Positions 1-23,110 of a stretch of DNA of 23,684 bases are shown in pieces. Location: the UHGV virus genome UHGV-0175797; one strand, given 5' to 3'. Each line of letters begins with the position of its first letter. Position 1 is the stretch's first letter. Under the pieces are notes generated by a model. It searched no databases, was not told the origin of the DNA, and saw nothing but the letters and a program-made list of their open reading frames with translations. Position numbers and translations under genes: made by a program. Source of the stretch: a virus.

Positions 1-1777
1 CGAACGCCTCAATGCCCTGACTGAAAACCAGCGCCAGGTGGCTGATGCACGAATCGCGATCGTCAGCGAAGTTCTGAAAGTCGCGCAACAACCTGGTTTC
101 AGCTGTGCGAAGGCTATCCGGTTTATCGTTGACAACCTGGCACGTTCGCAACTGGACGAGCGCATTGTGGCAATGGTTGAGACGGCGAACGCCAAAAAGG
201 GAAACAGCCGTGCGTTGAGTGAAATCACGCTGAAACGCTGGATTGCGGCCTTTAACAAGGCACAGAACGCCGCTGAACGCCTGCTTTTACTGGCACCGGG
301 TAAACGCCAGGAAATAAAAGCCGAAGATATTAACTGGCTGCCCGAATTTCTGGCGCAGTATCGCCAGTCAAACGGCCGACCAATGACCGAGGCTTACGAG
401 GATTTTGTTGCTGAATGGCAGCACCGGCACGCTGATGAGCCTTATATGCTCGATATCATGCCCTCTTATGACACCATTCGCCGCGCAATGAAGAAACTGC
501 CGGAAGTGGTGAAACAAAAAGGCCGGGTAACTGGCAGTGAATACCGTCAGCTTGAGGGATTCACGCGCCGCGACTGGTCCAGAATGCCGGTGAATTATGT
601 CTGGATTGGTGACGGTCACGGCATGAAGCTGAAATGCGCGCACCCGGTTCACGGGCGGCCATTCGCACCGGAAGTGACCTTTGTTATCGACGGTGGCACG
701 CGCTTTGTGGTGGGCTGGAGCCTTGACCTGGCTGAAAATGTTTTCGCCGTAGCCGGTGCCATACAGCACGGTATTCGCCATCATGGCAAACCGTTTCTGT
801 ATTACTCGGATAATGGCTCCGGGGAAACCGCCGACGTCCTGGATAAGGAGATTGTGGGGATACTGCCACGACTGGGGATTAATCACCCGACAGGGATTGC
901 CGGTAATCCGCAGGGACGGGGCATTATCGAACGGCTTAACCGCACATTACCGATGCGCATAGCCCGTAAATACCGCACCTATTTCGGGAAAGGAGCAGAT
1001 CGCGAGACGTTACGTAAAACCAACCGCGATTTACGCTCGGCATTCAGTGCCCTGCAACAGGGCAAACGGCTGAACGCCCGGCAGCAGTCAGCGATGCGTG
1101 ATTTACCGTCCTGGTCTGAACTGATTGATGCCATTCGTGACGGTGTTGAGTGGTACAACAACCGGCCGCACGATGAATTACCCATGAAGCCGAACGGTAA
1201 ACATTACAGCCCGGCGGAGTTCAGAAAAAAACGCCTGGCGGAAGAGGACACGGAAATTGAATGGCTGTCCGATGTTGAACTGCGGGATATGTTCCGGCCG
1301 ATGGTGGAGCGCCCTGTAAGACGCTGTGAAATACGCTGGCTGAATAATATTTACTACGCGCCCGAGCTGCGTGACGAGCATGGCCGTAAGGTACTTATCA
1401 GCTATGACATTCATGATGCCGAACGAATTACCGTGCGCCGCCCGGATGGCAGCGTGATTTGCGAGGCGGTATGGGACGGCAATAAACGCGAAGCCTTCCC
1501 TGTCAGCGCGGAATACTACAAACAGCAGCAGCGCCTTAAAGGCATGCGTAAACGCGCAGAGGAAAAAATCCGTGATGCCGAGGATGAGGTTGTCAACGTG
1601 CTGGAGCACAAGCCGCAGGAGCCCTGGCTGGAAAACATATACCGCCCTGTGGGTAATACGGTGACCGTTCAGCAACCGGTCGCTGACGATGAACCTGATG
1701 AAGAATACGAGCGTAATTTCCAGCGGGGATTGCAACTGCTCGAAGCGAAATTAAAAGAAAGTGATCCGCTGGCCTGA
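1..1777 (+). CDS. Mu-type DDE transposase (MuA family), 5' end lies outside the window
   Basis: The reading frame is open from base 2 with no stop, so track ORF 38..1777 is only the first in-window start. Core motifs resemble the MuA catalytic core (WIGDGHGMKLKC, YYSDNGSGE) and the C-terminus has a Mu-like acidic tail (DDEPDEEYERNFQRGLQLLE). Immediately followed by a MuB-like gene. Confidence 0.85.
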   Translation, partial: ERLNALTENQRQVADARIAIVSEVLKVAQQPGFSCAKAIRFIVDNLARSQLDERIVAMVETANAKKGNSRALSEITLKRWIAAFNKAQNAAERLLLLAPGKRQEIKAEDINWLPEFLAQYRQSNGRPMTEAYEDFVAEWQHRHADEPYMLDIMPSYDTIRRAMKKLPEVVKQKGRVTGSEYRQLEGFTRRDWSRMPVNYVWIGDGHGMKLKCAHPVHGRPFAPEVTFVIDGGTRFVVGWSLDLAENVFAVAGAIQHGIRHHGKPFLYYSDNGSGETADVLDKEIVGILPRLGINHPTGIAGNPQGRGIIERLNRTLPMRIARKYRTYFGKGADRETLRKTNRDLRSAFSALQQGKRLNARQQSAMRDLPSWSELIDAIRDGVEWYNNRPHDELPMKPNGKHYSPAEFRKKRLAEEDTEIEWLSDVELRDMFRPMVERPVRRCEIRWLNNIYYAPELRDEHGRKVLISYDIHDAERITVRRPDGSVICEAVWDGNKREAFPVSAEYYKQQQRLKGMRKRAEEKIRDAEDEVVNVLEHKPQEPWLENIYRPVGNTVTVQQPVADDEPDEEYERNFQRGLQLLEAKLKESDPLA

Positions 1778-1859
1778 AATAAAAAAATAACCCGAGGGGT
1801 GACTCAGGTTATTTGAGGTTTCAGTCTCGGAGAATGCTGTCTCAAGCGAGGTGAATAAT

Positions 1860-2792
1860 ATGACCGATATTAACGATGTAATCAAGACCATTGATGAACT
1901 TATTGATGGCGGCGTACTGACGCAGTATGCCATCGCCAGAGAGGCGGGAATTTCCGACGGCACATTATCGGCTTTCCGTAAGGGAAAATATAAAGGCGAT
2001 AACGCTGCTGTGGCTGCTTCCCTGCGCTCCTGGTATGAGAACTGGAATAAACAAAGCGCACTGCCGGAACCGCCGCAGTTTGTGGAAACTCAGACAGTCC
2101 AGGAGCTGCGCGCACTGTTTCAGGCGGTTCGCCTGATGGGCTGTATTAACGTTATTGTGGGCGTACCGGGTGTGGGTAAAACGGCCACTGCCCGTAATTA
2201 CTGCCAGGAGCAACCAAACACCTGGATGATCACCCTGTCACCCGCGCACTCCAGCGTCACGGAGTGTCTGCTGGAGCTGGCCGATGCGCTGGGGATTGAT
2301 TACACCCGCGCGAACAAAGGGGCATTATCCCGCGCCATCCGCCGTCGCCTGACGGGAACGCGTGGACTGGTGATTGTGGATGAGGCGGATCATCTTGGTA
2401 TTGACGGTCTGGAGCAACTCCGGGCAATTCAGGACGCCACGGGGATCGGGATGGTGCTTATTGGTAACCCGCGCGGATTGTTTAAAGGTGGACGCCGCGC
2501 CTTTGATGATTTATCGCGCCTGTTCAGCCGTCTTGCCCGTACAAAACAACTTCGCAAGGCCAAAAAGGCGGATGTGCTGGCCATTGCCAGGGCATGGGGT
2601 ATCAGTGGTGAGGCCGAGCTGGCCGTCATGCAGGCTATCGCTGAAAAGCCGGGAGCATTACGTGTTCTGACACATACGCTTAACCAGGCGTGGCTCACCG
2701 CCAGCGGTGAAGGCGCGGCGCTGACAGAAAAACATATTAATGCGGCCTTTAAAGAGGTTTATACCAACCCTGAATTACTCTCACAGGTGTGA
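1860..2792 (+). CDS. MuB-type transposition ATPase (AAA+, target DNA capture)
   Basis: Walker A GVPGVGKT and Walker B LVIVDEADHL; N-terminal HTH-like segment; about 310 aa, directly downstream of the transposase as in Mu. ATG 1860 is preferred over GTG 1851 because GAGGTG lies 6-8 nt upstream. Confidence 0.88.
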   Translation: MTDINDVIKTIDELIDGGVLTQYAIAREAGISDGTLSAFRKGKYKGDNAAVAASLRSWYENWNKQSALPEPPQFVETQTVQELRALFQAVRLMGCINVIVGVPGVGKTATARNYCQEQPNTWMITLSPAHSSVTECLLELADALGIDYTRANKGALSRAIRRRLTGTRGLVIVDEADHLGIDGLEQLRAIQDATGIGMVLIGNPRGLFKGGRRAFDDLSRLFSRLARTKQLRKAKKADVLAIARAWGISGEAELAVMQAIAEKPGALRVLTHTLNQAWLTASGEGAALTEKHINAAFKEVYTNPELLSQV

Positions 2793-7387: not shown

Positions 7388-7388
7388 T

Positions 7389-8483: not shown

Positions 8484-8515
8484 AAATCCCGCCACAGCGC
8501 GGGATTTTTATTTTA
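8484..8515 (+). terminator. rho-independent terminator-like hairpin (AAATCCCGC-cacagc-GCGGGATTT followed by TTATTTT)
   Basis: Perfect 9-bp stem plus T-tract immediately after the gemA-like stop and about 35 bp before the Mor/C-family start. Confidence 0.65.
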
Positions 8516-8549
8516 AACTTGCCCTGTGTAATGATGACCGGAGGCGGGT

Positions 8550-8972
8550 ATGGCTGAAACACAGATGAGCATGTTTGGTGACAGCGAACAGCTGCACGCG
8601 CTGATTGACCGTCTGGATGATATTCCTGATGATGAGCTGAAAAAGAACTGGCCCGGCACGCTGCGGGACCTGGTTGATGTGATCAGTGCTGAACTGCACC
8701 GTCAGGGGATTGAACCTGCTCAGGCGGGAATGCTTGCCCGTAAGGTTGCAGCCGCACAGGCCGGGTACATGGGCGGGCGTGGTTATTATCTCCCGGTCGG
8801 TGAATCCCTTTTCACCGAACTGCGCAATAATGAAATTTTTTCCCGCTGGAGCCAGGGCGAAAAAATTGAAACCCTGCGCCGCCACTACCAGATGTCAGAG
8901 ACGCAGATTTACTCCGTTATCCGCAACCAGCGTCGCCTGCATCAGGAGCGCACGCAGCCCCGGCTTTTCTGA
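8550..8972 (+). CDS. Mor/C-family transcriptional activator (middle/late gene activator), 140 aa
   Basis: Aligns by eye with Mu Mor across the family-conserved segments (FGD, L..L+D.L..EL.R.G+.PA.A, GG..YY+P.G..L, C-terminal HTH ...Y.+S...+Y.VIR..RRL). Length and position (after a terminator, directly before the lysis gene) are more like Mu C. GGAGG RBS. Confidence 0.75.
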   Translation: MAETQMSMFGDSEQLHALIDRLDDIPDDELKKNWPGTLRDLVDVISAELHRQGIEPAQAGMLARKVAAAQAGYMGGRGYYLPVGESLFTELRNNEIFSRWSQGEKIETLRRHYQMSETQIYSVIRNQRRLHQERTQPRLF

Positions 8973-9043
8973 TATTCCGCAAATCCTGCCCCCTTTTCCT
9001 CACGGTTACGCTGACTCAGAGAACACCATGAGACAGCGTAACA

Positions 9044-9544
9044 ATGCCAAAACTCCCCGCACCCCTGCGTAAAAAGCTGATTGCCCTTGTTCTGGCCGGA
9101 GCCGGGACGTTCACCATTGCCACGCACTACACCGGCTACTGGGAAGGGAAAGAAAACACCACGTACATTGATCCCACCGGCACCCCCACCATCTGTTACG
9201 GCCATACCGGCCCGGATGTGAAACCGGGGATGACAAAAACTGATGAAGAGTGTCTGGAGCTGCTGGAAAAGGACATGAAATGGGCCTTTGCGGCTATCGA
9301 TCGTCATGTTCAGGTGCCGCTTACCCGTGGTCAGACGGTGGCGCTGGCCTCCTGGATTTTCTGGGCCGGTGAAACGAACTTTCGCAACTCCACGCTCCTG
9401 CGCCTTATCAATGCCGGGCAGATGCCCGCGTCCTGTAAGCAGTATATCCGCTGGATTTATTCAAAGGGGGTAAAACTCCCCGGTCTTGAGGCCCGCCGTT
9501 CGGCGGATGAATGGTTATGTCGTTACGATTTGCCGAAAGTCTGA
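9044..9544 (+). CDS. SAR-endolysin (GH24 T4-lysozyme-like muramidase with N-terminal signal-anchor-release domain)
   Basis: Catalytic-triad-type motif YWEGKENTTYIDPTGTPTICYGHT (E...D...T) preceded by a weakly hydrophobic Gly/Ala-rich N-terminal segment LIALVLAGAGTFTIATHY after a basic patch (LRKK), as in the P1 Lyz and phage 21 R SAR endolysins. Confidence 0.85.
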   Translation: MPKLPAPLRKKLIALVLAGAGTFTIATHYTGYWEGKENTTYIDPTGTPTICYGHTGPDVKPGMTKTDEECLELLEKDMKWAFAAIDRHVQVPLTRGQTVALASWIFWAGETNFRNSTLLRLINAGQMPASCKQYIRWIYSKGVKLPGLEARRSADEWLCRYDLPKV

Positions 9545-9617
9545 ACCGCTTCTGGCGACCGCTCATGATTGCGCTGCTGTGTGCCGTTGTGCTGCTGCGG
9601 GGTGTGCTGTGTCTGCG

Positions 9618-10007
9618 GTGAACAATCCCTTACCGGCCCTGATTGCCGGAGGCTGTATGGCGGCGCTGGGGGTGATGAGCGTGCTGGCTGCCGTGGTATG
9701 GGGAATGCACCAGAAGACGCAGCGCCTTGAGGACAATAATCATGTGCTTGTGCGTGAACGGGACGAAGCCCGTCTGGTGCTGGCAAACCAGCAACGCACC
9801 CTGCAACTCATTTCACAAATCAGCAAGGCGGCCACGAATGAAAAACAGCAGAACATGCAGCACAGCGAGGAACAGCAGAGCATTGTCCGCCGGTCACTGG
9901 CAACGGTGCCTGCTGCCGCTGTGCCTGTGCCTGATGATGTGGCTGACCGGGTGCGGCGGGCCGTCTGTGAAATTCGTCCCTGTGCCGCCGGTGCCGATCC
10001 CCGCTGA
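9618..10007 (+). CDS. i-spanin (Rz-like): N-terminal transmembrane segment plus periplasmic coiled coil
   Basis: TM segment LPALIAGGCMAALGVMSVLAAVVWG followed by a charged helical region (QKTQRLEDNNHVLVRERDEARLVLANQQRTLQ). Track ORF 9486 starts inside the endolysin; GTG 9618 gives a full TM segment, ATG 9657 has the better RBS, so the start is uncertain. Confidence 0.6.
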   Translation: MNNPLPALIAGGCMAALGVMSVLAAVVWGMHQKTQRLEDNNHVLVRERDEARLVLANQQRTLQLISQISKAATNEKQQNMQHSEEQQSIVRRSLATVPAAAVPVPDDVADRVRRAVCEIRPCAAGADPR

Positions 10008-10290
10008 ATGGCTGGCTGACTGCCTGGTCCCTCCCGCGCCGCAGCCGTTCACGTTTGGTGCATCGGTCACTTACAACCTGCAACTGCTGGCGGTGATTAA
10101 AAACTGCAACGTGGACAAGGCCAGCATCCGCCGTCTGGAGACACAGCGACAGCAGGCACCGTTGCCATTAGCCGCGATGACTTTGAAGACGACAATCTTG
10201 GCATCTACTCCCCGTTGTTCCAGGAGATGGGGCGCGCTGCGGCGGCACAACCGGATGAACTGGTCTTTGCTGCACTGCGTGATGGTCTGA
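9838..10290 (+). CDS. o-spanin (Rz1-like lipoprotein) in the +1 frame overlapping the i-spanin; its 3' part reads out of frame into the major-head remnant
   Basis: Lipobox LTGC preceded by a hydrophobic core (CLLPLCLCLMMW) and followed by a Pro-rich mature region (VPVPPVPIPAEW...PPAPQPF). An alternative TTG start at 9883 gives a 23-aa signal peptide. The ORF has no stop until 10290, i.e. it runs across the proposed deletion junction. Confidence 0.45.
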   Translation: MKNSRTCSTARNSRALSAGHWQRCLLPLCLCLMMWLTGCGGPSVKFVPVPPVPIPAEWLADCLVPPAPQPFTFGASVTYNLQLLAVIKNCNVDKASIRRLETQRQQAPLPLAAMTLKTTILASTPRCSRRWGALRRHNRMNWSLLHCVMV

Positions 10291-10856
10291 ATGCGGCCTG
10301 CTATGACGGCCAGAACTTCTTTGATACCGAACACCCTGTTTACCCCAAAGTGGATGGCTCCGGTGATGCACAGATGGTCAGCAATATGTTTGTGGCAAAA
10401 ACCGGCTCTGTCGGTGCACAGGCGGATTACAGCGGCCCGGCCTGGTATCTGCTTGACTGCTCCCGCGCGGTAAAACCGCTGATTTATCAGGATCGCCGCA
10501 AGGCCGAACTGGTTGCCCAGACAAAAGTCGATGAAGGCCGTGCGTTTACTGATAACGAGTTTGTGTTCGGTGCTTCCGCCCGTCGCAATGTGGGCTACGG
10601 CTTCTGGCAGATGGCCTACATGATGCAGTCACCGCTGACGCTGGATGCGCTGTGGCACGGCTGGTCAGCCATGCGTGACTTTAAGGCTGACGGTGGCCGC
10701 AAACTCGGCATCAAACCCACCCATATTGTTGTCCCCACCTCGCTGGAAAAACAGGCGGTGCAGCTGCTGGAGCGCGAGCTGTTCGCGGACGGTAACACCA
10801 CCGTCTCTAACGAGATGAAGGGCAAGCTGGAGCTGGTTGTCGCGGATTATCTGTAA
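10101..10856 (+). pseudogene. 5'-truncated major head subunit remnant (Mu gpT family), C-terminal two-thirds only
   Basis: Frame 0 is open from the stop at 10098-10100. Similarity to the Mu-type major head protein begins around ...ISRDDFEDDNLGIYSPLFQEMGRAAAAQPDELVFAALRDGLNAACYDGQNFFDTEHPVYP and runs to the C-terminus. There is no ATG/GTG in frame before TTG 10215 / ATG 10227, and no N-terminal about 90 aa. Confidence 0.6.
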
Positions 10857-10899
10857 ACGGTGAGCCGGGCTTACGGCCCGGCCCCTGCGGAGGGCAAAT

Positions 10900-11253
10900 A
10901 TGAATGAACATCACACTGTGGCAGCAACAGATGATTCAGGCCTTCAGGTCAGTGGTGACAGTCCTGTCACGGTACTGGCAGAAGTGCGTTGCAGTCGTGC
11001 GCAGTTTCGTCGTGCGGGGTTCCTGTTCATGCGGGGACGCCAGCAGGTTGACGTCACCCCGGAGCAGCTTGCCCGACTGGAAGCGGAGCCATGCCTCACT
11101 GTACGAATACTACAGACGCCTGGTGATGATGCGGGAGCCGTGGCGGGTGTGGTTCATGCAGAGACCGGTGCAGATTTAGCCGAAGCCGGACAGGATGCTC
11201 CCCGGAAAAAGACCGGCAATAACGCCAGACAGGCGAAAAAGGCTCGCGCATGA
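10900..11253 (+). CDS. hypothetical virion-associated protein (position of Mu gp35)
   Basis: GGAGGG RBS before ATG 10900; the stop overlaps the next start (ATGA). Chosen over the alternative frame 10904..11179 because of coupling and RBS. Confidence 0.45.
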   Translation: MNEHHTVAATDDSGLQVSGDSPVTVLAEVRCSRAQFRRAGFLFMRGRQQVDVTPEQLARLEAEPCLTVRILQTPGDDAGAVAGVVHAETGADLAEAGQDAPRKKTGNNARQAKKARA

Positions 11254-11669
11254 ATTACGCCACCGAAACCGATATGCGGGCACGTTACCGCGAGGATTTG
11301 CTCAGGCCATTACTGGCCGTGCCCCGTTCGGATGAGCCGGACGCGCGCAAGCTGAACCGGGCACTGACGGACGCGTCTGCCCTTATCGACAGTTACCTGT
11401 CTGCCCGTTACACGCTGCCGCTGGCGGTGGTTCCGGCGGTCCTTGTTCAGCATTGCTGCACGATTGCCTTTTATTACCTGTGCGATCAGCGGGCATCCGA
11501 TCAGGCGCGTGACCGTTACCGTGAGGCGCTGGCCTGGCTGAAAGATGTCATGAACGGTAACGTGCCGGTCGGCGTGGATACAGACGGTGCGGCCCCTGAA
11601 TCCGGGGATTTACCGCAGGTGCAGTCTGATGCGGCGGTGTTCGGGCGCAACCAGAAGGGCTTTATATGA
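11250..11669 (+). CDS. Mu gp36-like protein (DUF1320 family, head-tail joining region)
   Basis: 139 aa; position and size match Mu gp36; coupled start and stop overlaps. Confidence 0.55.
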   Translation: MNYATETDMRARYREDLLRPLLAVPRSDEPDARKLNRALTDASALIDSYLSARYTLPLAVVPAVLVQHCCTIAFYYLCDQRASDQARDRYREALAWLKDVMNGNVPVGVDTDGAAPESGDLPQVQSDAAVFGRNQKGFI

Positions 11670-12229
11670 TTACGGAAACCGAGCAAGCGTACATCGCCCG
11701 TATCCGTGAGTATTTCGGGAATGAACTGGTGTCAGTTGACACGCATCCCGGCGACTGGAGCGACAGTGTGCTGCGCACCATGCTGATTAGCGCCCCGGCG
11801 ATCTACGTTGCCTGGCTGGGTGCCGGTGAAGGCCGTACCCGTGGGCGTCTGGTCAGCCACTGGGTGTTCTACGTCATCGGCGACATGCTCAATGGCCGTG
11901 AGGTCAGCCGTCCCGGGCTTTATCAGATTGTGGCCCGCCTGATTACCGTGCTGGACGGCTTCAGAACCGAAAAAACCTCACCGCTTTACTTTGAAAAGGC
12001 GGTCAACGGTTACACCGAAACGCAGGCCGACAGTGGCGCGGTGATGTATGCGCTTTATTTCTCCTGCGAGGAAATGATCGCACCGCTGACTGATATCAGC
12101 TCGCTGGATGATTTCCTGCGCCATTACGAAACCTTCACCGAACCGGAAGGCACACCGGAATTTAAGGCGCACATCAGCCTGCCAGGTGCAACCGCCGCCG
12201 GTGAAAAAGCCGGACCGTCAGAGGAATAA
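11666..12229 (+). CDS. Mu gp37-like virion morphogenesis protein
   Basis: 187 aa; synteny with Mu gp37; ATGA overlap with the upstream gene. Confidence 0.55.
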   Translation: MITETEQAYIARIREYFGNELVSVDTHPGDWSDSVLRTMLISAPAIYVAWLGAGEGRTRGRLVSHWVFYVIGDMLNGREVSRPGLYQIVARLITVLDGFRTEKTSPLYFEKAVNGYTETQADSGAVMYALYFSCEEMIAPLTDISSLDDFLRHYETFTEPEGTPEFKAHISLPGATAAGEKAGPSEE

Positions 12230-12232
12230 CAG

Positions 12233-12520
12233 ATGACAACCATTTTTATCAAACCCGCGCCGGGATGCCTGATCCGCGATCCGGACACCATGAAACCGCT
12301 GGCGCAGGAGGGAGAGGAAAAACCCTTCACCCCGTTCTGGTGCCGCCGTCTTAATGACGGGGACGTCATTGTGGTGGAAAAAGCGGCTGAAGCAGCACCG
12401 GCAGCAGCGTCTGCAACGACTGATGCCGCCGGAAAACCCGCGGGAGCGGCAGCAGAAAAACCTGCGACTGAAAAACCCGCGACTGAAAAACCCGCAGCAT
12501 CAGACAAGGGGACGTCCTGA
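12233..12520 (+). CDS. Mu gp38-like small protein with C-terminal Ala/Pro/Lys/Glu-rich repeat linker
   Basis: 95 aa; low-complexity C-terminus (KPATEKPATEKPA); its stop overlaps the sheath start (TGATG). Confidence 0.5.
   Translation: MTTIFIKPAPGCLIRDPDTMKPLAQEGEEKPFTPFWCRRLNDGDVIVVEKAAEAAPAAASATTDAAGKPAGAAAEKPATEKPATEKPAASDKGTS
12455..12499 (+). repeat. 15-bp tandem direct repeat (GAAAAACCYGCGACT, about 2.7 copies) encoding the (EKPAT)n linker
   Basis: Three consecutive near-identical 15-mers are directly visible in the sequence. Confidence 0.7.
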
Positions 12521-14022
12521 TGATTAACTTTGATTATATCGGCGATAACAATCGCATTCCGCTGGTACAGATTGAAATCAATAATTCAATGGCCGTGACC
12601 GGCACTCCACCACAGCGTCAGGCGGTACTGTTGTTTGGTCAGGCTGCAATGAAAGACACCACCATTCAGGGGCGCGGTCAGCTTGATGTACCAGTACGTA
12701 TTACCCGAGCTTCACAAGCAAGAGAACTCTGGGGGCGAGGTTCCATGATTGCACTGATGGTAGAGGAATTTATCGCCATTAACCCTGACACAGAGTTATA
12801 TGCCATTGCACAGGGGGCTGGAACAGGTCAGTCCAGGGCATGCGTGATGAATATCATTGGAACAGCATTGGCAGACGGGGTGTTAAGTGTTTACATCGGC
12901 GGTCGCCGTTACCTCCTGCCCGTCAGTAAGGGGAAAAAAGGTAAAGAGCTTGTGGAAGAGCTGGCTAAGGTCATTAACGCTGACACTGATGCGCCATTCA
13001 CTGCTATCGCAGCTGAAGTCAGTGGTGATAATGCTGAAGGACTTAAAGGGAGCATGGGGGTTAACGCCCGCTTTATCGGTGAATGCTCAGCTCATGATTT
13101 ACGGGTGAACTATTATGACGGTGAAACTACACCGGCCGGTCTTACGCTGGAGCTCGTCGCGCCAACACAGAAGGCAACAAACCCCGATATCACCCGTAGC
13201 GTCTCAGGGATGGGGAATCGTCAGTACAACTACATCGTCATGCCCTATAAGGATGCGGCAAATCTCAAAATTCTGGCGGATGAACTGCTGAAACGCTGGG
13301 GACCGGTAAAAATGTCGGACGGTATGGTCTGGATGGCGCATACCGGCACCTTCGGTACGGCAACCAGTTTTGGTGAATCCCGTAATGACTTCCTGTTTAC
13401 CTGCACTTCTATTCCTAAAGCACCAGAGCCGGATTATGTCTGGGCGGCCTCCATTTGTGCGGTCTGTGCGCCCTCCCTGTCAACGGATCCGGCCCGACCA
13501 TTACAGACACTGGCGCTGCCTGCCCGTATGGCACCTGAAGCACCGGCTCGTCTGACGCGGGAAGAGCGAAACAGCCTGCTTTATACCGGCATGTCCACGG
13601 TGACCGTTGCGGCCGCTGATGTGGTGCAGATTGAACGTCAGGTGACGATGTACCGTCAGAATGCATACGGCGAAAGCGATCCCAGCTATCTGGATGTAGA
13701 AACCATCTACACCCTGTCATATCTGCGTTATTCCCTGCGCACCTTTATCACGCAGCGTTTCCCGCGCCACAAACTGGCCGATAACGGTACTCCCGTCCGG
13801 CCCGGTCAGAATATCGTGACGCCGGAGATTATGACGCTCCAGCTGATTGCACTGGGGGAAGAATGGGTGGAACTCGGGCTGGTCGAAAATCTGGACACCT
13901 TTAAAAAGAATCTGCTCGTGGAGCGCAACACAAAAGACCGTAACCGTCTGGATGTGATGTGTACACCGGATCTGGTTAACCAGTTCCGCTTCATGGCCGC
14001 GCAGATCCGTTTCATTTTGTGA
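12520..14022 (+). CDS. contractile tail sheath protein (Mu gpL-like)
   Basis: 500 aa; the N-terminus (DYIGDNNRIPLVQIEINNS) is typical of myophage sheath proteins; followed by a tube gene as in Mu L-M. Confidence 0.85.
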   Translation: MINFDYIGDNNRIPLVQIEINNSMAVTGTPPQRQAVLLFGQAAMKDTTIQGRGQLDVPVRITRASQARELWGRGSMIALMVEEFIAINPDTELYAIAQGAGTGQSRACVMNIIGTALADGVLSVYIGGRRYLLPVSKGKKGKELVEELAKVINADTDAPFTAIAAEVSGDNAEGLKGSMGVNARFIGECSAHDLRVNYYDGETTPAGLTLELVAPTQKATNPDITRSVSGMGNRQYNYIVMPYKDAANLKILADELLKRWGPVKMSDGMVWMAHTGTFGTATSFGESRNDFLFTCTSIPKAPEPDYVWAASICAVCAPSLSTDPARPLQTLALPARMAPEAPARLTREERNSLLYTGMSTVTVAAADVVQIERQVTMYRQNAYGESDPSYLDVETIYTLSYLRYSLRTFITQRFPRHKLADNGTPVRPGQNIVTPEIMTLQLIALGEEWVELGLVENLDTFKKNLLVERNTKDRNRLDVMCTPDLVNQFRFMAAQIRFIL

Positions 14023-14030
14023 GGTAAGGC

Positions 14031-14396
14031 ATGAGCGGAAAACAGCATCAGGGCACGGCCACCATCCGTGTGAACGGACAGGAGTACGCCACCCTTGAGG
14101 GAGCCACGTTCTCCCCGTCCGGCTTTGAGCGTGAAGTGGTGAAAGGCGCGAAAGTCTATGGCTATCGTGAGAAACCCCGTGAGGCGACGCTGGACTGTAA
14201 ATTTCCGGCTGGCGGAGAAGGTTCACCGGCTGCCGATGAAATCAACACCTGGACTGCGGTCACGATTGAGTTCGTGGCCGATACCGGTGAAGTCCATATG
14301 ATGACGAAGGCCTGGAGCAGTGAACCGGCCTCGCTTGACGGTGGCGGTGATATCTCCGCGAAGTTCGCCAGCGCCACCAGTACCCGTGTCCAGTAA
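14031..14396 (+). CDS. tail tube protein (Mu gpM-like)
   Basis: 121 aa, immediately after the sheath; size and position are typical. Confidence 0.75.
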   Translation: MSGKQHQGTATIRVNGQEYATLEGATFSPSGFEREVVKGAKVYGYREKPREATLDCKFPAGGEGSPAADEINTWTAVTIEFVADTGEVHMMTKAWSSEPASLDGGGDISAKFASATSTRVQ

Positions 14397-14410
14397 TCAG
14401 GAAAAATGCA

Positions 14411-14890
14411 ATGACCACACGTAAGAAAAAAACGGCGGTTTCTGACGAGGCCGTGATGGAGGCTATCCGGGATGTACTTGAAGACGGCGATCCCCGCACC
14501 GCCGGGCTGGCTGAACAGCTGGCGAACGGCTATGTGGATCTGCTCGACGGTCTGCCGTTCGGGGAATCCCGTGAATACCGCGTCACCTTCCGCGAACTGA
14601 CGGCGAAAGACAGCATTGACGCGGAAACCGAGGCCGAGCGTCTTATGGAAACCCGAAATGGCGGCCCGGTTCTGATAGCCTCGCCGGCACTGCGCGGCAT
14701 TGCACTGCTGCGCCGTCAGATTGCCGCTGTTGGCCAGATTGAGGGGCCATTGTCTCCGCGTCAGATCGGACAGCTCAGCGAGCGCGATCTCTCCCGTCTG
14801 ATGGCGGCGGTAAGCCTGCTTGATTCCGCGATGGCAGGAAAGCTGGTCGCTGAACGGGGGCGACCAGATGCAGTGCCGGGATCAGATTGA
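14411..14890 (+). CDS. tail assembly chaperone (Mu gp41-like)
   Basis: 159 aa acidic protein directly upstream of the tape measure gene, with an overlapping alternative-frame ORF at its 3' end. Confidence 0.6.
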   Translation: MTTRKKKTAVSDEAVMEAIRDVLEDGDPRTAGLAEQLANGYVDLLDGLPFGESREYRVTFRELTAKDSIDAETEAERLMETRNGGPVLIASPALRGIALLRRQIAAVGQIEGPLSPRQIGQLSERDLSRLMAAVSLLDSAMAGKLVAERGRPDAVPGSD

Positions 14891-15014
14891 AGAAGCCGCA
14901 ATTGTGCTGGGGATGGTGACAAAAAGCGGCCCGGAGTGGGCGCTTAACCTCCCCTTATCGCAGCTTTACCGGCACTGCCGACAGACCGAAAAAATTCTCA
15001 GAACGAAGCAGTAA
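14820..15014 (+). CDS. possible frameshift extension of the tail chaperone (or an independent 48-aa ORF from ATG 14868)
   Basis: ORF in the +1 frame relative to the chaperone, overlapping its last 70 nt and ending 3 nt before the tape measure start. Confidence 0.3.
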   Translation: MIPRWQESWSLNGGDQMQCRDQIEEAAIVLGMVTKSGPEWALNLPLSQLYRHCRQTEKILRTKQ

Positions 15015-15017
15015 CCC

Positions 15018-17075
15018 ATGGCAAAAAACCTGAAAGCCTCCCTGATTGTCGATTTACTCGGCAATATTTCCGCCAAATCCCGCCAGTGGTCACAGGAGCT
15101 GGGGGCATTCTCCCGTTCCGGCAGGACGGGGCTGGGTGGTCTTGGAAATGCAGCACGCCGGGCCGGTCAGGAAACAGAGCTTGTTGGCTCCCGTATGCAG
15201 CGAACGCTTGCCGGTGTTCGTGGCAGTATCCGCACGGTAACGTCAGATTTTGACCGCCTGCAGGGCAGCATTACCGGCACCATCGGGCGGATAAGCAACC
15301 TTTACGGGATGCTGGCGGGAGGGGCTGCGGTCTACGGTTTTAATAAAGCCTTTATCCGCCCGGCCGCAGAGATGGAGAACTATATTCTGCGTCTCAACGC
15401 CATTAATCATGGCGATAAGGCAAAAACGGAAGCAGTGAAAGCCTGGGCGGTACAGAACGCCAAAGACACCACCTGGGGGCTGGCGGGGGTTATGCAGGAA
15501 TACGCCTCCAGTCGCGGGTTTGGCATGAGTGACAGGGAAGCCCGTCGCTTTATTACCATGCTTCAGGATCAGGGCGGCTATCACGGCTGGTCACTGTCAG
15601 AGGCACAGGGTGCGTCCCTGCAACTCAAACAGATGTTTGCCCGCCAGAGTATCCAGGCAGCGGACGCCAATATTCTGACCGGATACGGGATTAACGTTTA
15701 CCAGTTACTGGCCGATAAGCTGGGTGTAAACCAGAAGATCATCCGTGAGAAAGGCGAGAAAGGAAAACTGGGACCGGACAGCATTCGCCTGTTATTTCAG
15801 GTGATGGCCGAACAGGCAAAAGGTGCCCAGAAAAACGCCATGAACTCATGGACGGGAATGACGTCCATGATGGGTGACGTCTGGGATCAGTTTGCCCGTG
15901 ACGTGATGGCGAAGGGACCGTTTGACAGCCTGAAAAAGAGCCTGAAAGGCTTTCTGGATTATGCCGATGCGGCACAGAAAAGCGGCTTACAGGATAAGCT
16001 GGCCACACAGACGGCCTCAGCACTGAATCAGGGATTTGAGTATGCCAGAGATGCTGCGACCGGCTTTTACCGGGCCATTCAGAAAGTCAGGGAAACGCTT
16101 CAGGCACTGCGCGACGCCGGTTATGGCGATGCGCTGGATCGTATTGGTCAGGGTGCGCAGACCGCCGCAAAGTACCTGATGTATATGTATCTCGCCTCCC
16201 GTGCGCTGAAGGTGCTCAGGTTTGCAGGGACGGGGGCATTACGTCTCGGCGCAACCCCCTTACGCTATGGCATGGCGATGACCTCCGTGCTGACGTCGCC
16301 CTTCCGCAAACCGCAGACCACTGTACCGGGAACGCAGCACGGACGCGCTGGACGGTTCCTGAATTTCCTTACCGGGGTAAATCCGGCTGCCGTTCAGCCC
16401 GTGCTGGTCACCAACTGGCCTGCGGGTGGCCTGGCCTCAGGTGGCGGGGATGTGGTGGTCAGCGGTGACGGCAAAACCGTGCGCGGCCGTAAAAAACGCG
16501 GCCCCGGACGTGGACGGGGTGTCACGACCGTCGTGACTGCCGGTGAGCAACTGGCGGAGAGTGCCGGTAAACAGGGCTTCTTCGGTCGTATGATGAGCCG
16601 TGCCGGTGGTCTGCTAACGGCGGCCGGAAACCGCATGGGGCTGGGGCGTTTTGCCGGGCTGTTCCGTGGTGCCGGTCGGCTGGGTGGTGGTGCCCTGTGG
16701 GCCGGTGCCATGGCGGCTCCTGTACTGCTGGACAGCAGCGCCAGTGCAGCCGATAAAGCCGGTGCCGTGGGTTCTCTTGCCGGAAGTATCGCCGGTGGCG
16801 CGCTGGGGGCGGCTGCCGGTCCGGTCGGGGTTGCCATTGGTTCCACGGTGGGCAGCTATCTCGGTGATTATCTGGGGGGCTGGCTGACGCAGGCCTGGCA
16901 GAAACTGCGTGGCAGCAGTGACGAAAACGGCGGACAGGCCACCGCGAAAACCGCCGCACGGGTGGAGCTTGTGGCCCCTGAAGGCTGGCGGGCGCGCAGT
17001 ATTGATGTGGATGATACCGCACAGCATGGCCTGGATGTGAACGTCTGGAACGGAGGGAACTATGGCCTCTACTGA
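15018..17075 (+). CDS. tail tape measure protein
   Basis: 685 aa; helical N-terminal two-thirds and Gly/Ala-rich C-terminal region; position between the chaperone and the DNA-circularization-like gene. Confidence 0.85.
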   Translation: MAKNLKASLIVDLLGNISAKSRQWSQELGAFSRSGRTGLGGLGNAARRAGQETELVGSRMQRTLAGVRGSIRTVTSDFDRLQGSITGTIGRISNLYGMLAGGAAVYGFNKAFIRPAAEMENYILRLNAINHGDKAKTEAVKAWAVQNAKDTTWGLAGVMQEYASSRGFGMSDREARRFITMLQDQGGYHGWSLSEAQGASLQLKQMFARQSIQAADANILTGYGINVYQLLADKLGVNQKIIREKGEKGKLGPDSIRLLFQVMAEQAKGAQKNAMNSWTGMTSMMGDVWDQFARDVMAKGPFDSLKKSLKGFLDYADAAQKSGLQDKLATQTASALNQGFEYARDAATGFYRAIQKVRETLQALRDAGYGDALDRIGQGAQTAAKYLMYMYLASRALKVLRFAGTGALRLGATPLRYGMAMTSVLTSPFRKPQTTVPGTQHGRAGRFLNFLTGVNPAAVQPVLVTNWPAGGLASGGGDVVVSGDGKTVRGRKKRGPGRGRGVTTVVTAGEQLAESAGKQGFFGRMMSRAGGLLTAAGNRMGLGRFAGLFRGAGRLGGGALWAGAMAAPVLLDSSASAADKAGAVGSLAGSIAGGALGAAAGPVGVAIGSTVGSYLGDYLGGWLTQAWQKLRGSSDENGGQATAKTAARVELVAPEGWRARSIDVDDTAQHGLDVNVWNGGNYGLY

Positions 17076-18420
17076 CACGCCGGGGCGTGGCTCCTTTCGT
17101 GGCGTACCGTTCCTGGTTTATCAGGAGCAGCGGGAACGGGGCGGACGTAACATTGTGCGCCGTGAATACCCACTGCGTGAAAGCGGCGGTGCGGATGATC
17201 TGGGGCCAAAACTCCCGGAGTTCACATTCACGGTTCTAGTGACCGGAGACGATCTTCAGACACAGCGAAGCCGCCTGCGTGATGCGCTGCGTGCACCCGG
17301 TGCCGGTGAACTGATGCACCCGGATTACGGCACGTTAAACGTGCTGATAAACAGCTTTGAAAGCCGTTATAACGCCAGCGAGCAGGGAACGGTTGAGTTC
17401 ACGATCAACGTGATCCCCGCCAGTGACGATACCGCCCCTTCGGTGGCAGAAGATACGGCAGCTGCGCTGGAGCAGAAAAGCGGCTCAGCAATGAATCAGC
17501 TGTTTAACACACTTTCAGACGGCTGGACGGTGATTTCAGACGGTCTGCATGATGTACAGGCCATGACCGACACCATCAGCGATAAAATTGATGCGCTGGA
17601 GAATGCCGTTTCAGGGATGGGGATTGTGCAGGATATCAGTGCCTTTACGGCCAGTTTTACTGCCCTGAAAGGGAATGCCGCCGCCCTGATTAATGCGCCC
17701 CGTCGCATGGCTGAATCGCTGGCCGGAATGTTTGCCGTGCTGGCGGGGCTGCCCGGCGATCCTTCCCTGTCGCTGACCGGAAAAGCCGGAACGCCGTCCG
17801 GCAGCCTGACCACAAACCGTGACAGCACGACAGAGCAGGCCATGCCGCAGCTGTACCGCACACTTTCTTCCCTGCGTTACACCCTCAGCGAACAGGATGA
17901 TCCGCAGCGCCTGATTGGTCTGACGCCTGCGGCACAGAACAATATCCGTCTGCTGCGGAGCGTCATGCAGAGTGCAGCCCTGGTGTCGCAGGCGCAGACG
18001 GTCGGAAAACTGCTGGATCAGGTCATCCGGCAGAATACGACGCACGTTCAGGATACTGACCGTGCGGGCGGACTGGCCTGGCTGGAAAGTTCTGCTGATG
18101 TGCAGCGTATCAACCGGGATTTGAGCGATGCCATGGAACAACAGGTGCTGGATCTGTCCGCACAGGGCCATACCGGCACCGCCCTTGCATTACGTGATGC
18201 AGGGCTTGCGCTGACAGAAGATTTAACCACGCGGAGCGTGCATCTTCCCGGTGCTTTTCAGGTCATGGTGCGAACCACCGAACCGGCACTGGTCACGCTG
18301 TACCGTGCCACCGGTAACAGCCGCCGCTGGCAGTATTTTGTCCGCAGAAACAATATCCCCGATCCGGTTTTTGTTCCGGGTGGCCGCCGCGTGGAGGTGA
18401 TCAGTGAGCAGCAGGATTGA
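17062..18420 (+). CDS. DNA circularization protein N-like (Mu gp43 family)
   Basis: 452 aa; N-terminal region (GRGSFRGVPFLV...GGRNIVRREYP) is typical of the DNA circulation protein family; syntenic with Mu N. Confidence 0.75.
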   Translation: MASTDTPGRGSFRGVPFLVYQEQRERGGRNIVRREYPLRESGGADDLGPKLPEFTFTVLVTGDDLQTQRSRLRDALRAPGAGELMHPDYGTLNVLINSFESRYNASEQGTVEFTINVIPASDDTAPSVAEDTAAALEQKSGSAMNQLFNTLSDGWTVISDGLHDVQAMTDTISDKIDALENAVSGMGIVQDISAFTASFTALKGNAAALINAPRRMAESLAGMFAVLAGLPGDPSLSLTGKAGTPSGSLTTNRDSTTEQAMPQLYRTLSSLRYTLSEQDDPQRLIGLTPAAQNNIRLLRSVMQSAALVSQAQTVGKLLDQVIRQNTTHVQDTDRAGGLAWLESSADVQRINRDLSDAMEQQVLDLSAQGHTGTALALRDAGLALTEDLTTRSVHLPGAFQVMVRTTEPALVTLYRATGNSRRWQYFVRRNNIPDPVFVPGGRRVEVISEQQD

Positions 18421-19528
18421 ACTGTATATCGGCGGCAGTATTTTTTCCGGCTGGCTGACGGTCAGCGTCCGTCGCTCGCTGGAGCATCTGGCCGGGTCGT
18501 TTGAACTGGGGCTGATGCTGCCCGGTGAGCGCATCCCCTCAGCCCTGCGGACCGGTCAGTCCCTGACGCTCAGAATTAACGGGCAGACGGTCATCAGTGG
18601 CTGGCTGGATCAGGTCAGTCAGCGGATCAGTGCAACCCGTCATCAGATCAGCATCAGCGGTCGGGATAAAACCGGCGACCTGGTGGACTGTGCCGCCATC
18701 CATCCCGGCAGCCAGTGGCGCAACCGGACGCTGGCACAGATTGCCGCAGATTTATGTGCGCCCTTCGGGATAGCCGTGCGCTGGCAGGTTAACGACGACA
18801 CGGCTGCACGCCCCTTCAGCTCTTTTACGCTGGAAAACTCAGAAACCGTGGCGGATGCGCTGACCCGTGCTGCCCGGCATCGCGGGGTGCTGGTGACCAG
18901 TAATGCTGACGGCGATCTGGTGTTCACCCAGGCAGGAAGCCAGCAGACGGACAGACTGGTGCTGGGAGATAACCTGCTTGATGCCGATTACAACACGGAC
19001 TGGCGAGGACGATACAGCGAATACCGTGTCCGGGGACACGGGCGCGGTGGTGGCAAACGGGGAGACAGCGAATCCGCCGCCCGTCTGGCAGCACCTGTGG
19101 GCGTCATCAGTGATGAGCAGATCGGCCGCTACCGGCCGAAAATCATCCTCGCCGATCAACAGACAGACATCACCGGTGCACGGCAGCGTGCCCTGCGTGA
19201 AATGCGCCGTGCGATTGCCCGTTCAGAACGGTTTTCTGCCACCGTGCGTGGCTGGTTCCGGGATGATGGCCGGTTATGGGATGTCAATCTGCTGACCGGT
19301 GTTTCAGCCCTGCGTTTCGGTATAGAACAGACTGAACTGCTGGTCTGTCAGGTGGAGTTTTTACTTGATGAGCATAACGGGGAAGTCACCCGGCTGGTAC
19401 TGGCACCGCGTGACGGCTTTATCGTTCCGGCAGAGCCGGACAGTAAGGGCCGGGGTGGTTCCGGTGACGATGTTGATGCCTTTATTCGCCAGCAGATGAA
19501 AAAACAGGGGATCAGCTTTGATGAATGA
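18404..19528 (+). CDS. baseplate hub / tail protein (Mu gp44 P-like, P2 gpD-like)
   Basis: 374 aa against about 379 aa in Mu; N-terminus IELYIGGSIFSGWLTVSV is typical of the family. Confidence 0.75.
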   Translation: MSSRIELYIGGSIFSGWLTVSVRRSLEHLAGSFELGLMLPGERIPSALRTGQSLTLRINGQTVISGWLDQVSQRISATRHQISISGRDKTGDLVDCAAIHPGSQWRNRTLAQIAADLCAPFGIAVRWQVNDDTAARPFSSFTLENSETVADALTRAARHRGVLVTSNADGDLVFTQAGSQQTDRLVLGDNLLDADYNTDWRGRYSEYRVRGHGRGGGKRGDSESAARLAAPVGVISDEQIGRYRPKIILADQQTDITGARQRALREMRRAIARSERFSATVRGWFRDDGRLWDVNLLTGVSALRFGIEQTELLVCQVEFLLDEHNGEVTRLVLAPRDGFIVPAEPDSKGRGGSGDDVDAFIRQQMKKQGISFDE

Positions 19529-20132
19529 TGAAGTGTTCAGCCGCCTGATTGCCCCGGTAACGCGCGGTATTCGCCTGTTGTTTGGCCGGGGCGTTCTGAC
19601 CGGCACACATGACGAACTGAAAATGCAGAATGTGCAGCTCACCGGCATGGACGGCGAAACCTTTGATGATGTGGAGCGTCCCCAGCAGTACGGGCAGATC
19701 AGCGTTCCCCTGCCGGGTGCGGAAACCTTTTTTGCCTGTCTGGGCGGACAGCGGGATCAGACTGTGGTGCTTGTGGTGGAAGACCGGCGCAGCCGCCCGA
19801 CCGGACTCACAGCCGGAGATACGGGGGTGTATCACCATGAGGGGCACCGGATACGGTTAACAAAGGATGGCCGCATTATTGTGACATGCAAAATGCTGGA
19901 GATTTACGCCGACGAGGGGATGCGGGTGGATACGCCGGAAGCCACCTTTACGGGCAATGTGACGGTGGATAAGAACCTGCATGTTAAGGGTAATTTCGCG
20001 CTTGAGGGTACGGGGAAATCTCAGGGACTGTTCACAATGTCGGATGCCGTTATTGCAGGGATACGGTATTCCGGCCATGTGCATCATGATAACGGCGAAG
20101 GCAGTAAGACAGGAGTGCCGGAGAATGGCTGA
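19518..20132 (+). CDS. baseplate spike / assembly protein V-like (Mu gp45)
   Basis: 204 aa; C-terminal region (FTGNVTVDKNLHVKGNFALEG...HVHHDNGEG) is typical of gpV-type spike proteins. Confidence 0.75.
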   Translation: MMNDEVFSRLIAPVTRGIRLLFGRGVLTGTHDELKMQNVQLTGMDGETFDDVERPQQYGQISVPLPGAETFFACLGGQRDQTVVLVVEDRRSRPTGLTAGDTGVYHHEGHRIRLTKDGRIIVTCKMLEIYADEGMRVDTPEATFTGNVTVDKNLHVKGNFALEGTGKSQGLFTMSDAVIAGIRYSGHVHHDNGEGSKTGVPENG

Positions 20133-20562
20133 TATTGCAATTGTGTGGGATCAGGGATGCGGTTCGCTGCAACTGAACGGTGCCGACCTGCTGACGGATG
20201 ACAGTCTGCTGACGGCCGTTCTGATTTCGCTGTTTACTGACCGCCGGGCGCTGGCATCGGATGAAATCCCTGACGGTACGCGCGACCGCCGGGGATGGTG
20301 GGGAGACAGTTTTCGCCCGCGCCCCATTGGCTCCCGTCTGTGGCTTCTCAGCCGGGAAAAAACGCTGGCCTCGGTGATAAGCCGTGCCCGTGCTTACGCG
20401 GATGAGGCGCTGGGCTGGCTCAGTCAGGATGGCGTGGCGTCATCCGTGGTCTGTCATGCAGAACGTGTGGGACACGCGCGGCTGGCGCTTTCGGTGCGCA
20501 TAACCCTGCCTGATGGTTCAGTGAGGCCCATGATTTTTTATGCTGATCTTAAGGGGGAGTAA
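20125..20562 (+). CDS. GP46-family baseplate protein (Mu gp46-like)
   Basis: ATG 20125 overlaps the upstream stop (ATGGCTGA); 146 aa against about 140 aa in Mu gp46. The track ORF 19981 start lies inside the upstream gene. Confidence 0.7.
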   Translation: MADIAIVWDQGCGSLQLNGADLLTDDSLLTAVLISLFTDRRALASDEIPDGTRDRRGWWGDSFRPRPIGSRLWLLSREKTLASVISRARAYADEALGWLSQDGVASSVVCHAERVGHARLALSVRITLPDGSVRPMIFYADLKGE

Positions 20563-21644
20563 TGCCTTATCAGCCTTTACCGCTGGCACAGTTAATCACG
20601 CAGACACAGCAGGATATCAGCCAGCGCCTGCCCGGCTCGCAGCCGGGTGTGAATGAAACCACCCTGAATGCCATTGCTTACGCTCAGGCAGGGTTATCTG
20701 CTCAGGAGCATGAGCATCTGGCCTGGATTGCGCGTCAGATCATCCCGACCGAAGCCGATGAAGCCGAACTGCTGAAACACTGTGCATTCTGGGGCGTCAT
20801 GCGTAAGCCTGCCTCTCGGGGGGACGGGCCGGTTCAGCTGATGCTGACCACGGATGCGGGGATCAAGGAAGGTGTGCTTCTCCAGCGAAGTGATGGCGTG
20901 GTTTACCGTATCACCACCTCCCTGACCGGTAAGGCCGGTACGCTGAATGTCAGTGTGGAAGCCGAAAGTGCCGGTCGTGCGGGGAATGCCCCGGCAGGGA
21001 CAAAACTGACATTTATCACACCGCAGGCGGGGATCAACCAGACGGCCACGGTGACCGGAACGGGGATCACCGGTGGTGCGGATGTGGAAACCGTGCCGGA
21101 GCTGCTTTCCCGTCTGGTTTTCCGGGTGCAGAATCCACCGTCCGGCGGCACGCAGTATGATTTTGAACGCTGGGCGCGTGAAGTGCCGGGCGTGACGCGG
21201 GCATGGTGCCGCCCGGAATGGCCGCAGGCGGGCAGCGTGGGGGTAACGTTTGTTCAGGATAATAACCCGGATATTTTCCCCGGTGACGGTGATGTTCAGC
21301 GGGTGGCGGATTATATCCGCAGTCATGATGATCCGGCGACCGGCCAGCCTGTCGGACAGCCTCTGGGGCCGACGGTGACCGTGTTTAAACTGACCAATAA
21401 GCCGGTGCCCTTCAGCATCAGGATCATCCCGAAAACACCGGAGAATCAGGCGGCCGTAAAACAGGCGCTGACCGACCTGTTGTATAACGAATCCCGGCCC
21501 GGCGGTCTGGTTCTGCCGTCGTCTTTCTGGCGGGCGGTGGCAGGGGTGAAAAATCTGGAGGATTTTGAAGTGCGCAGTCCGCTGACGTCAGTTCAGGCGG
21601 GAGACAGTGAGCTGCTGACGGTAGGAGAAATCACATGGCTGTAA
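20562..21644 (+). CDS. baseplate J-like wedge protein (Mu gp47-like)
   Basis: 360 aa against about 355 aa in Mu; coupled start (TAATG); sequence character typical of the baseplate J family. Confidence 0.8.
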   Translation: MPYQPLPLAQLITQTQQDISQRLPGSQPGVNETTLNAIAYAQAGLSAQEHEHLAWIARQIIPTEADEAELLKHCAFWGVMRKPASRGDGPVQLMLTTDAGIKEGVLLQRSDGVVYRITTSLTGKAGTLNVSVEAESAGRAGNAPAGTKLTFITPQAGINQTATVTGTGITGGADVETVPELLSRLVFRVQNPPSGGTQYDFERWAREVPGVTRAWCRPEWPQAGSVGVTFVQDNNPDIFPGDGDVQRVADYIRSHDDPATGQPVGQPLGPTVTVFKLTNKPVPFSIRIIPKTPENQAAVKQALTDLLYNESRPGGLVLPSSFWRAVAGVKNLEDFEVRSPLTSVQAGDSELLTVGEITWL

Positions 21645-22195
21645 CCCTGACCCCGCATCAGCGCGCCCTGTTGCAGTTACTGCCTGACGGGCTGGCATGG
21701 GACAAGCGTCCGTCATCCGTACTGGCATCATTATGTCTGGGCCTCAGTCATTCGACAGCGCGTGTATCCTGGACGGGTAAACAGCTGCTTGCCGAGCGTT
21801 TCCCTGACACGTCGCGCCTGCTGCTGGAAGACTGGGAGCGTTATCTCGGGCTTCCCGAGTGTGATATGGCCGGAGCCACCCTCACGGAGCGACAGCGTTA
21901 TGCCGGAAATAAATACCGGATGAAGCCCTCGCTGAACCGTGAATTTTATATCCGGTTTGCGGCGGAGTTTGGTTATCAGATTGACATTCAGCCCTCACCG
22001 GATTCGCAGTGGGTCAGTATTGTCACGATTAACAGTGAAACCGGCTACCGGAATATGAATGTGCTGGATGATATTCTCACGCCGCTGCGTATTTATGAAG
22101 GCGGTGCGCTGGAATGTATTCTGAACCGTTATAAGCCTGCATGGCAGACGTTTATTTACGTTTATGCAAACAGCCATGAAGAGGAGACTATTTAA
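21635..22195 (+). CDS. tail protein (Mu gp48-like, DUF2313/YmfQ family)
   Basis: 186 aa against about 187 aa in Mu; motifs [11 protein letters not shown] and [12 protein letters not shown] are typical of the family. Confidence 0.7.
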
Positions 22196-23076: not shown

Positions 23077-23084
23077 TGATATTC

Positions 23085-23110
23085 AGAAGGCCTTCCGGCC
23101 TTCTTTATTA
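23085..23110. terminator. bidirectional terminator-like hairpin between convergent fibre and chaperone genes (GAAGGCC-ttcc-GGCCTTC, A/T runs on both sides)
   Basis: Perfect 7-bp GC-rich stem with a 4-nt loop, followed by TTTATTA on the + strand and preceded by T-rich sequence on the minus strand. Confidence 0.6.

Follow-up and report, generated by a model that had tools for sequence, protein, structure and literature searches.

The 23,684-nucleotide virus genome UHGV-0175797, analysed here over its full length and referred to as the window, contains most of an Escherichia coli-type Mu-like transposable prophage, from a lineage that includes the Mu-like prophage of E. coli O157:H7. Our central finding is that one illegitimate, homology-independent deletion of 8,420 bp made this prophage defective, a reading to which we assign a probability of roughly 0.9. 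The deletion removed the block between the o-spanin gene lysC and the major head gene T, together with the adjoining ends of both genes, and is the only visible lesion in the element. An exact-sequence look-up of its tape-measure protein identifies the window as a whole metagenome contig (ENA ERZ1034931 NODE_462, metaSPAdes-style, with a coverage of 4.53 in its name) that begins inside a MuA-type transposase gene and stops in the tail-fibre region, leaving the prophage ends and the repressor region off the contig.

The deletion was mapped against the annotated prophage of E. coli AF39 (NZ_OZ547136.1, called L001 in the following), which is the best relative on the right-hand side. By blastn, positions 7948-10154 of the window correspond to L001 3374-5580 at 95.9% identity, and positions 10154-23684 correspond to L001 14001-27531 at 99.6% identity, the latter alignment being gapless over 13,531 nt; for the intervening 8,420 bp of L001 (5581-14000) the window has no equivalent. 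Combined with a three-way comparison, the blastn alignments place the junction at 10154..10155, where L001 5580 is joined to L001 14001/14002 and a single base (A) is common to both sides. The two junction flanks lie ~8.43 kb apart in the prophage of strain HH35, and the matches of all relatives break at base 10154. The overlap of only 1 bp, the single A, indicates that the deletion occurred independently of homology. A deletion between direct repeats was considered and rejected: the lost block starts and ends with TGAA, but neither copy was kept. The left breakpoint falls 55 nt short of the lysC end and the right one after codon 82 of T, so that the last 55 nt of the former (18 C-terminal codons) and the first 245 nt of the latter (codons 1-82) were lost and both border genes are truncated. 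Because the protein of the T remnant is 100% identical to that of the intact gene, and because all 16 genes downstream are intact, the deletion is recent.

The 5'-truncated T (10155..10856, plus strand) retains codons 83-315 of 315: residues 83-315 of intact gpT match 10155-10853 at 100% identity (tblastn), and the Pfam family Mu-like_gpT (E = 2.8e-83) is matched only over profile positions 74-289 of 289, the match opening at nt 10155 with residue 19 of the frame translated from 10101. The same frame contains an in-frame TAA at 10098-10100, and its first possible starts are TTG 10215 and ATG 10227. On the other side of the junction, a hybrid o-spanin gene (9838..10290, plus strand, with 9838 as its likely start) encodes an Rz1-like, LysC-type lipoprotein with the lipobox LTGC that is native up to 10154. 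Its conserved core survives, positions 1-68 of the 69 in the Pfam LysC profile corresponding to nt 9937-10146, while the native tail of 18 residues (HEFTDMAGTTAVPAGKTK) has been swapped for 45 out-of-frame residues from gpT DNA, ending at TGA 10288-10290. An in-frame LysC-gpT fusion protein was considered as well and rejected, the lysC sequence being in frame 1 and the gpT sequence in frame 0 (modulo 3), with the read-through stopping at 10290. The 209-residue 'Mu-like gpT' gene call and the long 'LysC' frame are artefacts of the deletion and not new small proteins.

Much of this had been anticipated. An earlier note on this DNA had proposed the loss of some 8 kb in one deletion joined near 10100-10160, a gpT-like frame that begins mid-protein, and an o-spanin whose natural 3' end had been removed, all of which the alignments bear out; the positions it gave for the i-spanin end (10007), the stop codon in the gpT-like frame and the first two start codons were recovered unchanged. 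It had further stated that no terminase, portal or prohead protease is visible in the 23.7 kb and that in Mu the central strong gyrase site lies in the missing region, and the searches described below agree with it on both points. The case that it named as refuting, related intact phages with the same compact arrangement, did not occur among 231 related E. coli prophages.

According to the annotation of L001, Pfam and the comparison with Mu, the lost block holds genes for a TraR/DksA zinc-finger protein, a DUF2730 protein, gp26-like and gp27-like proteins and an 82-residue protein, as well as those for the large terminase (gp28-like), the portal, the minor head protein F, the virion morphogenesis protein G and the protease/scaffold I. 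The Pfam matches in this part of L001 are Portal_Mu (3.9e-93), Mu-like_Pro (5.3e-75), Phage_Mu_F, Phage_Mu_Gp27, Phage_tail_S and DUF2730. The gp27-like protein belongs to PF11985 and is labelled terminase small subunit in the Mu record. A 554-residue protein of the block is 72% identical to Mu gp28, the large terminase of that phage, which the Mu record labels 'putative portal protein'. The ten missing proteins of the intact relative have no match anywhere in the 23.7-kb window (tblastn, best E = 0.17), and when the proteins of the block are used as queries only the retained part of LysC and gpT residues 83-315 match. Lost with the spacer between G and I were also the equivalent of the strong gyrase site and a late-promoter motif upstream of I. 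The element would accordingly be unable, on the analogy of Mu, to build heads or package DNA. Between F and G in the lost block, RefSeq annotates a 'tRNA-OTHER' on the minus strand of L001 (11861-11940); ARAGORN found no tRNA in L001 11700-12100. A scan of the window at the Rfam gathering thresholds returned no RNA family.

We then asked how often the junction occurs elsewhere. A 400-bp probe centred on it matches 231 E. coli genomes, always as two halves that break at 10154 (0/231 span the junction), and no spanning match exists among 5,426 complete E. coli genomes. A 25-nt junction probe likewise had no exact match in species-representative genomes, IMG/VR or the JGI metagenome collection. 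A look-up of the 209-residue product (from ATG 10227) returned three other assemblies that span the junction, besides the window's own contig; a look-up of the 213-residue product (from the TTG start) returned no record. The first of the three, scaffold_541 of ENA ERZ28623327 (PASO19-1_SAMN09781754; L003, 23,682 bp), has an identical junction; the second, the MEGAHIT-style contig k119_46146 of ENA ERZ27289094 (L005, 2,858 bp), and the third, a 950-bp contig of Logan SRR7658652 (L007), are 100% identical to the window across it. Since the junction is reproduced by different assemblers and the flanks share no k-mer there, a graph misjoin is excluded and the junction must be present in the reads. 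L003 and the window share both end points, one within the transposase gene and one beside the opposite-strand tail-fibre assembly gene, and differ at 5255, 10876, 16339 and 16352 (4 mismatches over 20.6 kb). The second of these positions falls inside a GC-rich hairpin just past the gpT stop codon (10864-10882; GCCGGGC-TTAC-GGCCCGGC), which has no T-run. As a separate observation, scaffold_1542 of ENA ERZ28646898 (VATA22-2_SAMN26287147; L004), part of a related prophage in a different metagenome, carries a gpT nonsense mutation at 847-849 that changes codon 82 from GAA to TAA in an intact protease-gpT context. This is the codon bordering the deletion of the window, a coincidence that is partly one of selection, as the 209-residue product used for the look-up is called only if the gene is interrupted just upstream.

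In the Mu record, gyrase is annotated as cutting at 17879/17880, in the stretch between G and I. The corresponding spacer of AF39 is part of the deleted block and has a nearly identical version in an O157:H7 prophage; it contains a block conserved with Mu sequence on the right-hand side of the cut (CGCG..CG.GATTTT..AACC.GTATTTAACGG). According to a review, no foreign site other than that of the Mu-like prophage of O157:H7 Sakai could take the place of the strong gyrase site of Mu, and Mu without a gyrase site replicates poorly (PMC10052514). After induction, replicative transposition of the present element would be slow, its gyrase site being gone.

A late-promoter-like motif (TTCCGCAAATCCTGCCCC; 8975..8992, plus strand) is found upstream of the endolysin gene and is the sole copy left in the window. 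This 18-nt motif (TYCCGCAAAWCCNGCCCC) resembles the TCCCGCACCT block that is common to the regions upstream of Mu lys and Mu I, a resemblance from which we infer a promoter function. The intact relative has a second copy upstream of I, at L001 12588-12605, inside the deleted block; a search of the window and L001 found no third copy upstream of the baseplate genes and no promoter equivalent to PP. Over 8400-12600, a scan for sigma-70 promoters and terminators gave counts no higher than those of shuffled sequence, the only convincing terminator-like hairpin being at 8484-8507, between gemA and the Mor-family gene, and no convincing terminator was found between the lysis genes and the tail genes. 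This, together with the surviving copy of the motif upstream, suggests that the homologues of gp35-38 and the tail genes are now probably transcribed by read-through from the lysis promoter; lying directly downstream of the lysis operon, they would use its promoter.

The lysis cassette itself did not come through undamaged. The endolysin (9044..9544, plus strand) is a homologue of Mu gp22 (40% identity; Pfam Phage_lysozyme E = 1e-36) and probably of the signal-anchor-release (SAR) type: its N-terminus reads MPKLPAPLRKK and then a weakly hydrophobic LIALVLAGAGTFTIA, and its catalytic residues are spaced E34-8-D43-5-T49, as read from the sequence. The Rz-like i-spanin gene (9618..10007, plus strand; gene callers use ATG 9657) is intact and near-identical to L001 5083-5433, with a weak match to PF10828. 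In the 112-nt gap between the endolysin and the called start of the i-spanin there is an open reading frame for 18 hydrophobic residues (MIALLCAVVLLRGVLCLR; 9567-9623), whose coding status is putative. The RefSeq lysC of the intact relative (L001 5417-5635) starts at a GTG downstream of the lipobox LTGC, which gives an annotated protein without the signal peptide and the lipidated Cys; the true start probably lies upstream, at the equivalent of ATG 9838 in the window.

Mu has no holin, and release of its SAR endolysin gp22 from the membrane requires the DUF2730 protein gp25, termed 'releasin' (Chamblee et al. 2022, PMC9239132). A knock-out of gene 25 (25::cam) lyses only ~3 h after induction, gp25 being required for timely lysis, and the dependence of the Mu endolysin on releasin comes from basic residues beside the SAR helix (PMC9239132). 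Aligned over its whole length, the DUF2730 protein of the intact relative shares 33% identity with Mu gp25, and on this similarity the gene lost from the window is a homologue of the releasin gene. By analogy with gp22, the endolysin of the window may depend on a releasin. The cassette is therefore not intact, with the releasin homologue gone and the C-terminus of the o-spanin foreign, and these two changes (the second of them leaving 45 foreign residues on the o-spanin) would make lysis delayed or defective.

To the left of the lysis genes, the MuA-type transposase and the MuB-type AAA ATPase (1851-2792) occupy 38..2792 on the plus strand, the 5' end of the transposase gene being off the contig. 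They were assigned from the annotation of the relatives, in which a 'Mu transposase C-terminal domain-containing protein' and an 'AAA family ATPase' lie under positions 1-2792 of the window, and the MuB-type gene carries PF09077 (Phage-MuB_C), as recorded in the near-identical contig L003. The early genes called as full open reading frames are those for MuB, Kil, Gam, the gp11/gp12-like proteins, GemA and the Mor-family activator. This last gene, of the Mor/C family (8550..8972, plus strand; Pfam Mor E = 6.7e-31), stands in the position of Mu gene C, just upstream of the lysis genes. The AF39 prophage has nothing corresponding to the early stretches 4790-5311 and 7234-7948.

Each of the 16 genes that follow the junction is intact and free of internal stops. 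The first four (10900..12520, plus strand) are identified by Pfam as HI1506-related/FluMu_N, Gp36, Gp37/DUF1834 and DUF2635 and stand in the position of Mu gp35-gp38; they are all intact, without internal stops and with 0-4 amino-acid differences from AF39, and their position and record labels suggest a role in head completion or the neck. They are followed by a complete contractile-tail module (12520..23629, plus strand; 99.6% identity to L001), comprising the sheath, tube, assembly chaperone, tape measure, DNA circularization protein N, the baseplate proteins P/gp45/gp46/gp47/gp48 and the tail fibre, with a tail-fibre assembly gene on the minus strand (23108-23629) as its last gene. The twelve tail genes differ from those of AF39 by 0-1 amino acids, and Pfam matches on the called genes are Gp41_Mu, DNA_circ_N, Phage_Mu_Gp45, GP46, Baseplate_J and Phage_Mu_Gp48. 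The earlier note had the element keeping its transposition, regulation, lysis and tail genes. This stands in full for the twelve tail genes and, as far as the contig reaches, for transposition and regulation (the MuA-type transposase, MuB, Kil, Gam, GemA and the Mor-family activator are present, the repressor region and the ends being off the contig); for lysis it has to be corrected, given the loss of the DUF2730 releasin homologue and the replaced tail of the o-spanin.

Several features place the element among the Mu-like prophages. The DNA of the window is 92-99.6% identical to Mu-like prophages of ~230 of the 5,426 complete E. coli genomes, and that of its major head gene is ~69% identical to phages Mu, D108 and SfMu. 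Genes for a MuA-type transposase and a MuB-type ATPase were found at the left side, both GemA (Pfam 1.8e-28, 7967-8479) and a Mor-family regulator are present, and the late genes follow the order of Mu and include Mu-type tail genes. The Portal_Mu/DUF935 portal, F, the protease I and a full-length gpT are not in the window, and the intact relatives have all of them; this lack is due to the deletion and is no argument for another ancestry. Left of the junction the closest relatives are the prophages of HH35 and 600029 (~98%), and right of it that of AF39 (99.6%). Such a change of closest relative is ordinary mosaicism, which means that the direct parent of the deletion was not found.

Several points weigh against the reading of a single deletion and its consequences. 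Identity to L001 is 95.9% on the left and 99.6% on the right, and the size of the lost block is given relative to a cousin. The contig has low coverage, and the other assemblies with the junction may derive from the same sample. The prophage ends and the repressor region are off the contig; the element may or may not sit in a chromosome, and a helper or a second copy of the head genes may be present in the same cell. Finally, the functional consequences proposed above are all predictions from the biology of Mu.

The headless element might instead be a maintained functional derivative, either a first-step tailocin or a self-transposing, mini-Mu-like satellite that travels in the heads of a helper, but we regard this as improbable. 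Mu packages its DNA by the headful, starting at its left end, and a helper phage can package mini-Mu derivatives that carry deletions. A helper-dependent element of this kind, packaged into heads from a co-resident intact Mu-like prophage, would fit the retention of the transposition genes and the fact that related prophages are often multi-copy, with up to 8 matching places per genome, so that helpers are common. The contig, however, has neither prophage end nor the packaging site, and it offers no sign of a helper in the same cell or of selection. Being packaged in this way would be a passive property of any internal Mu deletion; we consider this form of the idea quite improbable. If it did hold, headful packaging would place ~8 kb of extra host DNA in each particle.

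Even less credit, in our view, is due to a nascent tailocin, in which the headless element would be kept since induced cells release contractile tails that kill competitors. A tailocin built from a Mu-like tail does exist: the R-type syringacin of Pseudomonas syringae goes back to a phage that had such a tail, and the described tailocins lack replication genes in addition to head genes (PMC4542187). The window matches this picture in so far as its capsid and packaging genes are gone, its tail module remains intact and is almost the same as that of a prophage that looks functional, and its tail genes lie directly behind the promoter motif of the lysis operon. It departs from it in keeping MuA, MuB, Kil and Gam, in retaining a useless gpT remnant of 233 codons and the gp35-38 homologues, and in having a lysis system that is damaged and not preserved. 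Moreover, the arrangement occurs in 0/231 related E. coli prophages and has not diverged since the deletion, with no sign of selection or fixation.

An artefact of assembly or library preparation, in which a metagenome of low coverage would conceal an intact prophage through a chimeric read or a false join, appears to us very unlikely too. The coverage of only 4.53, the failure to find the junction in the complete E. coli genomes, in the genome and viral collections or in the JGI metagenomes, and the four positions at which the second assembly differs from the window, as noise or polymorphism, would be expected of such an error. Yet at least three other pipelines (those behind L003, L005 and L007) give the same junction base for base, a de Bruijn graph needs reads with the junction k-mers when the flanks share only 1 bp, and the sequence continues for >10 kb on each side instead of stopping at the junction. 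A naturally compact gene order, with a complete protein of 209/213 residues in a phage type that has no Mu-type head module at this place, found no supporting point and is refuted by the gpT profile match and tblastn alignment (only residues 83-315 of 315 and Pfam positions 74-289 of 289 are covered), by the ~8.4-kb head module that 231/231 related E. coli prophages carry between lysC and T, and by the o-spanin, which lost its own stop codon.

We conclude that a single recent deletion disabled this prophage, and that the element is an ordinary step of prophage decay, newly documented here; internal deletion is a well-known route of such decay, and the finding opens no new question and does not describe a new kind of element. 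Its value is that of a clean, base-resolved example in which one homology-independent deletion disables a transposable prophage, and in which the packaging and head genes were lost along with the releasin, the terminal part of the o-spanin, the central gyrase site and one late promoter. The same genotype offers natural material for testing, together and in a relative other than Mu, three expectations drawn from Mu: dependence on the releasin, dependence on the gyrase site, and late transcription by read-through from the lysis promoter.

The nearest systems for comparison are the intact Mu-like prophages of E. coli (AF39, NZ_OZ547136.1, L001; HH35; 600029; and O157:H7 FRIK804, L009), which run colinear with the window to the left and right of the junction at 94-99.6% nucleotide identity and share with it the early genes, the Mor-family activator, the endolysin, the spanins, the gp35-38 homologues and the tail module; in them, ~8.4 kb absent from the window separate lysC from codon 83 of T. 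Phage Mu (NC_000929.1) has the same order as this lineage, namely a C/Mor-family activator, lys, the spanins, gp24-27, gp28, gp29, F, G, the gyrase site, I, T, gp35-38 and the tail genes. Compared with Mu, the lineage of the window is distinct and diverged, and the window has no equivalents of gp24 through the first quarter of T; in this lineage only one Mor/C-family gene is seen, immediately before the endolysin gene, whereas Mu has two (mor and C). The R-type tailocins resemble the window in keeping a contractile tail set in the absence of capsid and packaging genes. They occupy a conserved chromosomal locus and have working lysis genes, in contrast to the window, a one-off variant with a damaged lysis cassette, transposition genes and a capsid stub. 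Two engineered derivatives of Mu correspond to parts of the same lesion. The 25::cam knock-out is a single lesion introduced into Mu, while the releasin homologue of the window was lost as a by-product of one natural deletion in a Mu relative; similarly, removal of the Mu gyrase site was an engineered single lesion, while in the window the site was lost naturally, alongside the releasin, in the same deletion.

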